This document shows positions 54,901 to 57,900 of a DNA stretch of 64,000 nt, in pieces (position 1 is the first letter of the stretch; every line of letters starts with the position of its first letter). Made by a program: the position numbers and the translations under genes. The notes under the pieces are model-generated. The model did no database searches. It was given only the letters and a program-made list of their open reading frames with translations, and was not told where the DNA came from. This DNA comes from Chiloscyllium plagiosum. Lineage: Eukaryota. The DNA is taken from contig NC_057729.1 in the NCBI RefSeq assembly GCF_004010195.1, forward strand, positions 58,971,335 to 59,035,334, written 5' to 3'.

Positions 54901-57900
54901 CCTGAGACAGTGATGGGAACAGACTTAATACCGTTCAAGAGAGATTTGGATGAAAGTTGAAGGATAAATATTTTCAGTACTGAGGAAAGAGGAGGAGTAC
55001 TGGGTTGCTCTATCAAGAGTTAGCACAGACGTAACTTGCTGAATGGCTTCCTGTTCTGATTGTTGCTTCTTGCAGGGAAGGATGTCAACACTGGTTCTGA
55101 TGTTCTAACAGCATTCTCTTCCTCTACTGTTGGTTGCAGGTTATTAAGAACAATCTGAATCCGAACTGGAAGCCTTTCTCTGTCTCTTTGCAGTCGCTGT
55201 GTAACGGAGATATGCAGAAGCCCATTAAGGTACAGCTGCTGAGTCCTTTCTGTGGAGCATTCCCAAGTTTCCAGGTGGTTCTGTTTGGGAGCTGGCCCCT
55301 TAAGCAGTGCAGGAATTTAAATCTGTGCCCAGTGACTGGGGAGCTACTGGCAGGAAATGGACACTTCAATGGAGCTGTAACTGGAGGATTTCATTTATTC
55401 AGAGTGTGGTGCTGGGAAAGCACAGCTGGTCATCCGAGGAGCAGGAGAGTTGAAACATCTGGCATAAAGCCTTCATCAGGAATCGGGATTCTCCTGCAAT
55501 CAGGTCGCCTCCAGCCCCACGCTCTTTGACTCTGATCTCCAGCATCTGCAGTCCTCACTTTCTCCTGACCAGTTAATGCATCTATTTAAATGATGTGGTG
55601 TTATGCTGTCCTCTGTTTACCCAGTTCCTTGGATATTTCATGCTCTGAGTCACGGGAGCAAGAGGAAGCAATTCAGCCCCTCAAGCCTGTTCCAGCACAC
55701 AGTGAAAGCATCTGTACTTTAATGCCATCTCACCTTGGTCCAGGTTACACATCAAAGATAGGAGAAAGTGAGGGCTGCAGATGCTGGAGATCAGAGCTGA
55801 AAATGTGTTGCTGGAAAAGCGCAGCAGGTCAGGCAGCATCCAAGGAACAGGAGAATCGACGTTTCGGGCATAAGCCCTGAAGTTGCTTTTCCAGCAACAC
55901 ATTTTCAGCACACATCAAAGATACTCTGGATTGTGGATATTTAAAGCTTTTGAAGTGCAGTTTGTCTGAATGGTTACCTGAGCCTCCGGTATAAAGCCCA
56001 CCAGCCTGCTCCCAGCTCCTCTGTTAGCTCCTGTTGGAGCTGGCTGCACACTAGTTGTTGTTTCTGTGGTTCTGGGCAGTGATTTACAGAGGGGCAGAGC
56101 AATGTAAGAAGTGAGGATTTAAATTCTGAAGGGGCTGGGTAGGATTGGTGCTCAGAGATTGTTTACGCTGGGCAGGAAATCCAAGATCCGGAGCCCAGGC
56201 CTCAGAGTCATTTCAGACTGGGATGAGAAGTCTCTTTGCTGACTGGGTTGTGAATCGTGTACATTCGATACTCCAGTGGACTCTGGATGCTCCGCCATTG
56301 AATATATTTGAAGCTGGGTTAGAGAGAGTTTCGGACTTTCAGAAAATCAGGTGTGGGGAGGGGGCATGAAAGTGGAATTAAAGCCTAGATCAGCCAAGCT
56401 TGTGTTAAATGGTAAAGCGGGCTCAATAGTCTGAATGGTCTACTGCTCCTGTTTCTTCTACTCTGCCTACAATTACCTGGGTACAGCAGCTCTCTCTTCA
56501 GGCAGCTCTGTTGGTTATTGCATTGTCCACTCTCTGATTTTCCACCCCAGTTCTGTCTGCTCTGGGTTACCTGACCTGCTGTTGTGGAACATTCCAACCA
56601 ATCTCAATTCCCCTCGATAGGGAAGGGATTTGGGCATTGGAGGGGAGCAGAAAATCAGCAACTGTTCACCACTTTCACCCCGGGGACTTGTACTAAACAC
56701 TGTTTGTGCTGACGTTGGATGGAGATAGGAAAGTGTTCGGCTGTGATGCTTGCGCAGTTAAATAGCTTTTCACCAGTCTTGGTGCACCGAGTGATTGATG
56801 ACTGAAGGCTGTGGATCTCAGATGCCCCACGTCTCCCCTCCGCTGGGCTGGGGTGTGCATCCTGGTGAGGTGAATCATGAAGCTGCCTTATCCCTTTTTG
56901 AAAGGGACACCATCTTCATCTCTGTGACCCCCATTCCCCCAAGCATATTCACTCTGCACTTACTCTGTGTTTGTTTGATGTCAGGTGGCTATTAACGATA
57001 AGGATGAAAGCACAGGCTCCGATTTGATAGGGGAGTGCACGGTTCCTGCTCAGAAACTGTTGGAAGCAAAGAACCAAGTGGTGAGGCCCTGTCTAATTCT
57101 CCATCTTGGCTGTCCTCTTTTCCCTGTAGGTGACCTGCTCTGACTATGATGGTGATGGCTCTCATGATCTGATAGGCCTTTTTGAAACTAACTTCTCTAA
57201 GCTACAGCAAGTGGAAATGGGGAATCCGGTGAGAACCTTCTTAATTTCTCTCTCAAATCTTTACGTTAGGTGGCATATGCTTTTTTATTTAAACCCTCCC
57301 CCCACCCCCACCCCCCCTTCTTCACAGACCCTGTGTTGTGCTGCGGTGTTTGCTGTTTTTGTGAATTTGGCTTGTCCGTCCTGTAAATTTCTGGTTTTGT
57401 TTGCACCTTCCCACACTCTTCATCCTTTTTCAGGTGCTTTCTTCCTCCTTCACTTCCTCTTTCCCACCCCTCCCCTCTTCCTCTGCGCCTTTTTAGGGGG
57501 AAGTCAGATTAGTCACAGTGGGTACAGCTCCACAGAAAGAAGAACTGCCCACTTGAGCACAGGGTTTTCTGGTGAGGACTTGATCTCAGTCCAAGAGGAG
57601 ACAGTGGAGATAAACAAACAGGAAAACAGAAACTATGCAGATTTGGGAATGATGCTGGTTTCAGGTTTTCAAGGGAACTTTGTAACCAAAATAGAATATT
57701 CCGCCCATTAAAGAAACAGCTGGTGTCAAGCTAGGGCTTTCAAAGCCTGCAGATTGTAGTAGGAAGAGAAGGTAGGAGATCCACAGGTCTGGTCCCTGAC
57801 AAAGAGTTGATAAGAGTCATTCCATGTCACACAGAAACAGACCTTTCAGTCTAACCCGTTCATGCTGACCAGATATCCTAAATTAATCTAGTCCCATTTG

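Follow-up and report, generated by a model that had tools for sequence, protein, structure and literature searches.

Two neighbouring coding segments in the copine-1 gene of the shark Chiloscyllium plagiosum raise the question of whether one exon exists there in two interchangeable versions, and what their exchange would do to the Ca2+-binding loop of the C2B domain. A sequence-only reading had proposed an old exon duplication with mutually exclusive use of the two copies, and we followed this up across the whole stretch of DNA analysed, 64,000 nucleotides in length (the window). Coding exons 1-9 of copine-1 span 42794-59183 of the window, all on the plus strand, with the downstream exons in the adjoining stretch L002. 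Exon 1 (42794..42925; AG/GT ends) was placed by tblastn to P0003 (XP_043566868.1), and exon 2 (47502..47681, in C2A), exon 3 (49027..49101) and exon 4 (49964..50035, where C2B starts) were likewise placed by tblastn, with their ends read off the sequence. Exon 5 (52215..52298) encodes loop 1 of C2B with D154 and D160 of P0003, and the constitutive exons upstream (exon 6, 55140..55229) and downstream (exon 8, 58492..58578) of the pair, as well as exon 9 (59124..59183), were recovered both by tblastn and in RNA contigs. Between exons 6 and 8 lie the alternative form, exon 7a (56985..57080; 32 codons, phase 0), which covers a strand, loop 3, a further strand and a helix of C2B; a small intron (57081..57129); and the canonical form, exon 7b (57130..57228; 33 codons, phase 0), which alone appeared in the RNA contigs.

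Several other elements were observed around these exons. A decayed, inverted partial copy of a downstream copine-1 exon and its 3' splice region lies on the minus strand at ~59846-59950 (71% over 117 nt, E 3e-13, with an 11-nt gap) and is likely a dead inverted duplicate within intron 9. Intron 8 contains a short tandem repeat at 58716-58810, in which a unit of roughly 31 nt recurs, as judged by eye, about three times, and fragments that we take to resemble LINE reverse transcriptase occur at 41488-42330 and in other intronic and upstream places. RBM12, with which a CPNE1 orthologue would be expected to share 5' exons, was not recognised among the ORFs of at least 170 aa in the 64-kb window. 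Three CPNE3-type exon-7 copies were found on the same strand within about 140 kb (L009, L010 and L011 on G000:C4), which suggests a tandem copine-3 gene cluster.

We confirmed that 7a is a real duplicated exon and the partner of 7b in the copine-1 C2B domain. As the sequence-only reading had described, 7a is an open, phase-0 segment of 96 nt, preceded by AG and followed by GTGAGG, 7b has 99 nt, and both translations agreed with those given earlier; the two peptides are identical at 9/32 positions without gaps (V1, D5, D7, D13, L14, I15, G16, K24 and L25), and the DNA at 33/96 in an ungapped comparison. The phases match, and the joins of either exon to the flanking exons are open. As a control for chance, we compared 473 open AG...GT segments of 90-102 nt, taken from the window's two strands, with a 7b profile (null mean -26.7, sd 10.5): 7b itself scored 112.7, 7a scored 31.3, and the top unrelated segment reached 4.5. 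Searching PDB with the single 7a peptide returned one weak C2 match (E 0.81) as the sole result. A protein search of the shark's own genome for a second 7a returned the window exon only, and none lay within 1.5 kb of the five paralogous exons examined with the 7a profile. The 3' boundary of 7a (57078-57083) offers two GT donors 3 nt apart; the RefSeq protein uses the second, and the first would yield a 31-codon exon.

Conservation was assessed in 50 7a and 48 7b proteins hand-picked from the matches and equal to 48 and 46 distinct exon sequences, a sample that annotated isoforms bias toward intact exons. Two predictions of the earlier reading were borne out in these sequences, namely that the loop-3 ligands are kept and that the loop tip is changed: D5, D7 and D13 are present in 48/48 distinct 7a and 46/46 distinct 7b sequences, and positions 6, 8, 10 and 12 differ by class. 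Position 6 carries Tyr/His (counted as aromatic or His) in 46/46 7b vs 5/48 7a sequences, position 8 is acidic in 48/48 7a vs 1/46 7b, position 10 is Ser/Thr in 47/48 7a and Gly in 46/46 7b, and position 12 is His in all 46 7b and none of the 48 7a sequences. Class-specific residues also occur in the second half of the exon (E17 in 45/48 7a), and the length of 7a is 32 codons in 47/48 distinct sequences. The net loop charge is near-equal in both classes (-3.96 vs -4.02), which rules out a change in net charge as an effect of the swap. Across the 50 proteins, mean identity was 0.74 for the 7a loop, 0.76 for exon 6 and 0.77 for exon 8; over the whole exon, it was 0.60 for 7a and 0.67 for 7b. The protein-level identity of the loop, being like that of constitutive exons 6 and 8, suggests that 7a is under constraint.

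AlphaFold models of both forms contain the same elements in the exon 7 region (a strand at 209-217, a loop, a strand at 223-232 and a helix from 233), so that the C2 fold is kept with 7a in the predicted structures; mean pLDDT was 77, a confidence not comparable between the forms because their alignments differ. The predicted structure of the 7a form matches the plant copine BON1 (E 4e-52). The Ca2+-binding C2 signature is present as well, with D-x-D-x5-D in loop 3 of 48/48 7a sequences and D154 and D160 in loop 1. A 7a profile aligned without gaps to loop 3 of synaptotagmin-1 (Syt1) C2A, at an E value of 0.6 that is weak alone. The D-x-D-x5-D motif falls in the same register in both proteins: positions 5, 7 and 13 correspond to D230, D232 and D238, position 6 to F231, position 8 to R233 and position 10 to S235, where 7a has Ser/Thr and 7b has Gly. 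However, Syt1 belongs to another protein family, and 7a has an acid in place of R233 and is without the hydrophobic tip residues, so that the analogy serves as a lead only.

In Syt1, S235 serves the third Ca2+ site specifically. This role is absent from the available sections of PMC3588068 and 10.1101/348748. According to the accessible text of PMC7581758, Syt1 C2A binds three Ca2+ through five aspartates and S235, and C2B binds two through five aspartates; F231 and R233 appear as lipid-facing candidates in the accessible part of 10.1101/810010. By this analogy, 7a, with Ser/Thr where Syt1 C2A has the Ca2+ ligand S235, may hold an extra ion. We find it quite possible, if still tentative, that a 7a form with an acid at the R233 position and no Tyr/His at that of F231 would bind Ca2+ and need more of it for docking on anionic membranes. 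That the two forms differ in some measurable biochemical property is something we expect with good confidence.

The shared ligands, net charge and predicted fold would also fit a reading in which both forms are near-equivalent in Ca2+ and lipid binding, and what separates them is a surface for protein contacts formed by the strand and helix past loop 3. Copine C2 domains do bind proteins (available text of PMC10968396), and residues such as E17 separate the classes in that second half; however, the sharpest class differences fall in the loop tip, at residues through which synaptotagmin-1 binds Ca2+ or lipid, and we regard such equivalence as rather unlikely. It seems improbable, too, that 7a acts as an off switch, Ca2+-insensitive or membrane-non-binding, in the manner of OGDH exon 4a. 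The acid at the R233 position and the loss of Tyr/His should weaken anionic-lipid docking, and OGDH provides a precedent (sections available of PMC7969005), but the loop-3 aspartates are invariant in 48/48 7a sequences.

The preferred reading, in which two Ca2+-binding forms with different loop tips are used one at a time, draws support from paired single-exon isoforms in many species and from the intron between 7a and 7b, which measures 49 nt, a point that the sequence-only reading had not raised. The only branch-point-like motif in this intron is CTAAT, found by motif match, with its A at nt 16. In the accessible text of PMC7969005 and PMC5740500, the threshold for steric exclusion is a distance of about 50 nt from donor to branch point. 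An intron of 49 nt whose predicted branch point sits 16 nt past the 7a donor makes steric exclusion the likely basis of the 7a/7b switch, and this intron is predicted to be too short for removal. Since 7a and 7b together remain in frame, decay alone cannot enforce exclusion, and NMD by frame was ruled out as the sole means. In read-through ORFs of other species, a sample that favours short, stop-free introns, the corresponding intron has 57, 63, 72 or 75 nt, and a length of 83 nt was inferred for P0212. In P0212, exon 6 is joined to 7a, followed by the retained intron, after which 7b and exon 8 are read out of frame (46/49 positions compatible, median 0.22). A small intron that resists removal would lead to just such a product, and the 6-7a-intron-7b-8 product of the window has a premature stop; any transcript carrying both exons would keep the intron, lose the frame and be degraded. 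Regarding regulation by Esrp, no cpne1 was found in the text or supplements examined of PMC5703972, and motif counts around the exons were uninformative.

Four runs were mapped over 55000-59300; the three RNA-like ones among them (X4, X1 and X6) had cover as contigs, and nothing from the raw-read run X20 aligned there. Each of the three yielded one contig joining exons 6-7b-8-9 at GT..AG ends, with depths of 46, 64 and 208, respectively. Among the junctions that the earlier reading had proposed to look for, the 6-7b-8 joins were thus present in 3/3 runs and those of 7a, among the joins listed, in 0/3; in these three covered runs, 7a had zero depth in the bin with its start, and the next bin was wholly explained by 7b. 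Contigs drop rare forms, and the result therefore indicates dominance of 7b in the three runs and not absence of 7a. Because only 6-7b-8 was seen in the RNA-like runs, we infer that 7b is the default form and that 7a would be minor or tissue-restricted. Use of 7a is supported by the RefSeq models, by P0212 and by a curated Xenopus record of a 7a-only protein (NP_001083652.1/AAH61671.1), whose AAH number presumably denotes a full-length cDNA clone. Read depth was very high over short repeats at ~55430-55900 and ~57800-58300, which are ordinary repeats.

These splicing data can be read in another way, with 7a as a regulatory dead end: use of its acceptor would lead to a retained intron, a frameshift and decay, and would thereby tune the level of copine-1 instead of yielding a second protein. 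The stop in the 6-7a-intron-7b-8 product, the existence of P0212 as such a transcript and the absence of 7a from the three RNA contig sets all agree with this. Yet the frame, the 32-codon length (47/48) and the three aspartates are kept across vertebrates, none of which decay needs, and the curated Xenopus record is a 7a-only protein, so we hold this explanation to be very improbable.

To return to 7a as a protein-coding alternative to 7b, the exon turned out not to be hidden, as had been claimed: although the ORF track misses it, RefSeq already annotates 7a isoforms in carpet sharks, and 4/4 candidates from a 7a query were RefSeq copine-1 isoforms of these sharks. The 6-7a-8 translation of the window is identical to a stretch of P0003 and the 6-7b-8 translation to a stretch of P0200. 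Querying with the C2B region yielded 2389 hits, the best 120 of which were sorted by motif. In 50 of these 7a was the sole version, 63 had a 7b-type exon alone, a class that takes in CPNE2/3 paralogues, and 3 lacked both; the remaining 4 models contain 7a and 7b joined in frame, and all are named 'hypothetical protein'. Another 79 cluster members comprised 14 with 7a, 64 with 7b and 1 without either. Among fishes, 7a-type exons were found in sharks, skates, a ray, chimaera, coelacanth, gar, reedfish, zebrafish, salmonids, eel and Myripristis; they were also found in frogs, a caecilian, axolotl, lizards, python, turtles, quail, harpy eagle and hagfish. Pairs of 7a and 7b forms from the same species came from bamboo shark, epaulette shark, horn shark, chimaera, gar, reedfish and Myripristis, as well as Xenopus, green turtle and hagfish.

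In birds, 7a occurred in 1/30 members listed in two clusters vs 5/14 turtle members, and three unnamed bird-like ORFs have a shifted or decayed 7a, which suggests an ongoing loss. No mammalian CPNE1 of either form was present among the best 120 of the 2389 hits, a blank that carries less weight because mammalian CPNE1 is reported to be strongly diverged (available text of PMC2568002); 7a may have been lost in mammals. Two observations concern individual models: the bird-like ORFs P0215, P0216, P0220 and P0245 contain 7a copies with shifted or altered ends, and the tortoise RefSeq model P0181 goes straight from exon 6 to exon 8 in frame, skipping both 7a and 7b.

The age of the pair was addressed with an exon tree of 45 exon rows and 29 columns. 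All 16/16 7a rows, hagfish included, fell on one side of a branch with support of 100/97, and 7b of jawed vertebrates grouped with CPNE3-type exons at 97/94 in this 29-column alignment; an independent hagfish duplication was not rejected on the same 29 columns (p-AU 0.30). In a tree built without exon 7, which included one named CPNE3 row only, the 13 jawed-vertebrate CPNE1 rows grouped at 96/96, and the hagfish gene was their sister at 91/89, on a long branch. These exon sequences favour a single duplication that would predate both the split of hagfish from jawed vertebrates and the separation of CPNE1 from CPNE3. The jawless-jawed vertebrate split is dated to about 500 Ma in the accessible text of PMC4494069. 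Given the single 7a clade, an age of about 500 million years is probable for the pair. The proposed old exon duplication under selection is supported, and it is older than sharks, with 7a extending from hagfish to reptiles.

Were 7a a dead copy, a chance resemblance or an artefact of annotation, its absence from RNA contigs and its decayed copies in unnamed bird-like ORFs would fit, but 7a far outscored the top unrelated segment (31.3 vs 4.5), appears in 50 of the best 120 matches and is as conserved in its loop as constitutive exons, so that conservation refutes this idea outside birds and we dismiss it. Very probably, then, copine-1 carries 7a and 7b as a tandem pair of homologous exons that encode the same stretch of C2B and, owing to the short intron, are likely spliced singly, giving two Ca2+-binding isoforms with different loop-3 tips.

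Human sets of mutually exclusive homologous exons (Abascal 2015, PMC4494069; Martinez Gomez 2021, PMC8373072; Hatje 2017, PMC5740500), as far as their available text describes them, resemble 7a/7b in being adjacent, homologous, ancient and alike in length and phase, in encoding the same structural element and in steric exclusion through a short donor-to-branch-point distance. Unlike 7a/7b, those sets start from human genes, and the CPNE2 candidate of Hatje (PMC5740500) concerns another exon. The text of PMC4494069, PMC8373072, PMC5740500, PMC5703972 and PMC7969005 contained no mention of CPNE, and the supplement tables examined of PMC8373072 and PMC5740500 had no row for CPNE1. OGDH exons 4a/4b (accessible text of PMC7969005) are likewise a vertebrate pair that sets a Ca2+ response, with branch points near the upstream donor; there, however, Ca2+ sensitivity is turned on or off and the pair is kept in mammals, whereas the copine-1 pair keeps the ligands in both forms and has an intron of 49 nt. 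The RefSeq copine-1 isoforms X1/X2 of non-mammalian vertebrates represent the same pair under automatic names only. Skin-specific Xenopus cpne1 isoforms are probably not this switch, as, in the available text of PMC6158741, one probe primer lies in coding exon 1 and none in exon 7. The accessible text of a 2024 review (PMC10968396) describes human copine isoforms as mostly deletions or alternative N-termini, assigns Ca2+-dependent membrane binding of copines to C2B and calls the functional effect of splicing unclear. Among the papers listed in searches of the openly accessible literature, none dealt with this exon pair, be it its exclusivity, age or function. Thus, while homologous exclusive exons in Ca2+ proteins are well known, the 7a/7b switch is annotated yet apparently unstudied.

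In the most far-reaching reading, a sterically locked exon switch would have rebuilt the Ca2+ loop of copine-1 C2B for ~500 million years in non-mammalian vertebrates, with the Ser/Thr of 7a as a third-Ca2+ ligand and one more acid facing the membrane, shifting ion number and membrane threshold by tissue, and with loss in mammals, many birds and CPNE2/3; as a whole, we consider this doubtful. The swap affects precisely the loop that bears the ligands and leaves the rest of the protein unchanged, and the existence of two CPNE1 forms is relevant to work in zebrafish and Xenopus. If the mammalian loss is true, the pair would be an example of ancient exon switches that are invisible to human-centred catalogues, and, if the third-ion reading is true, it would offer a natural pair for testing how the tip of a C2 loop sets Ca2+ stoichiometry.
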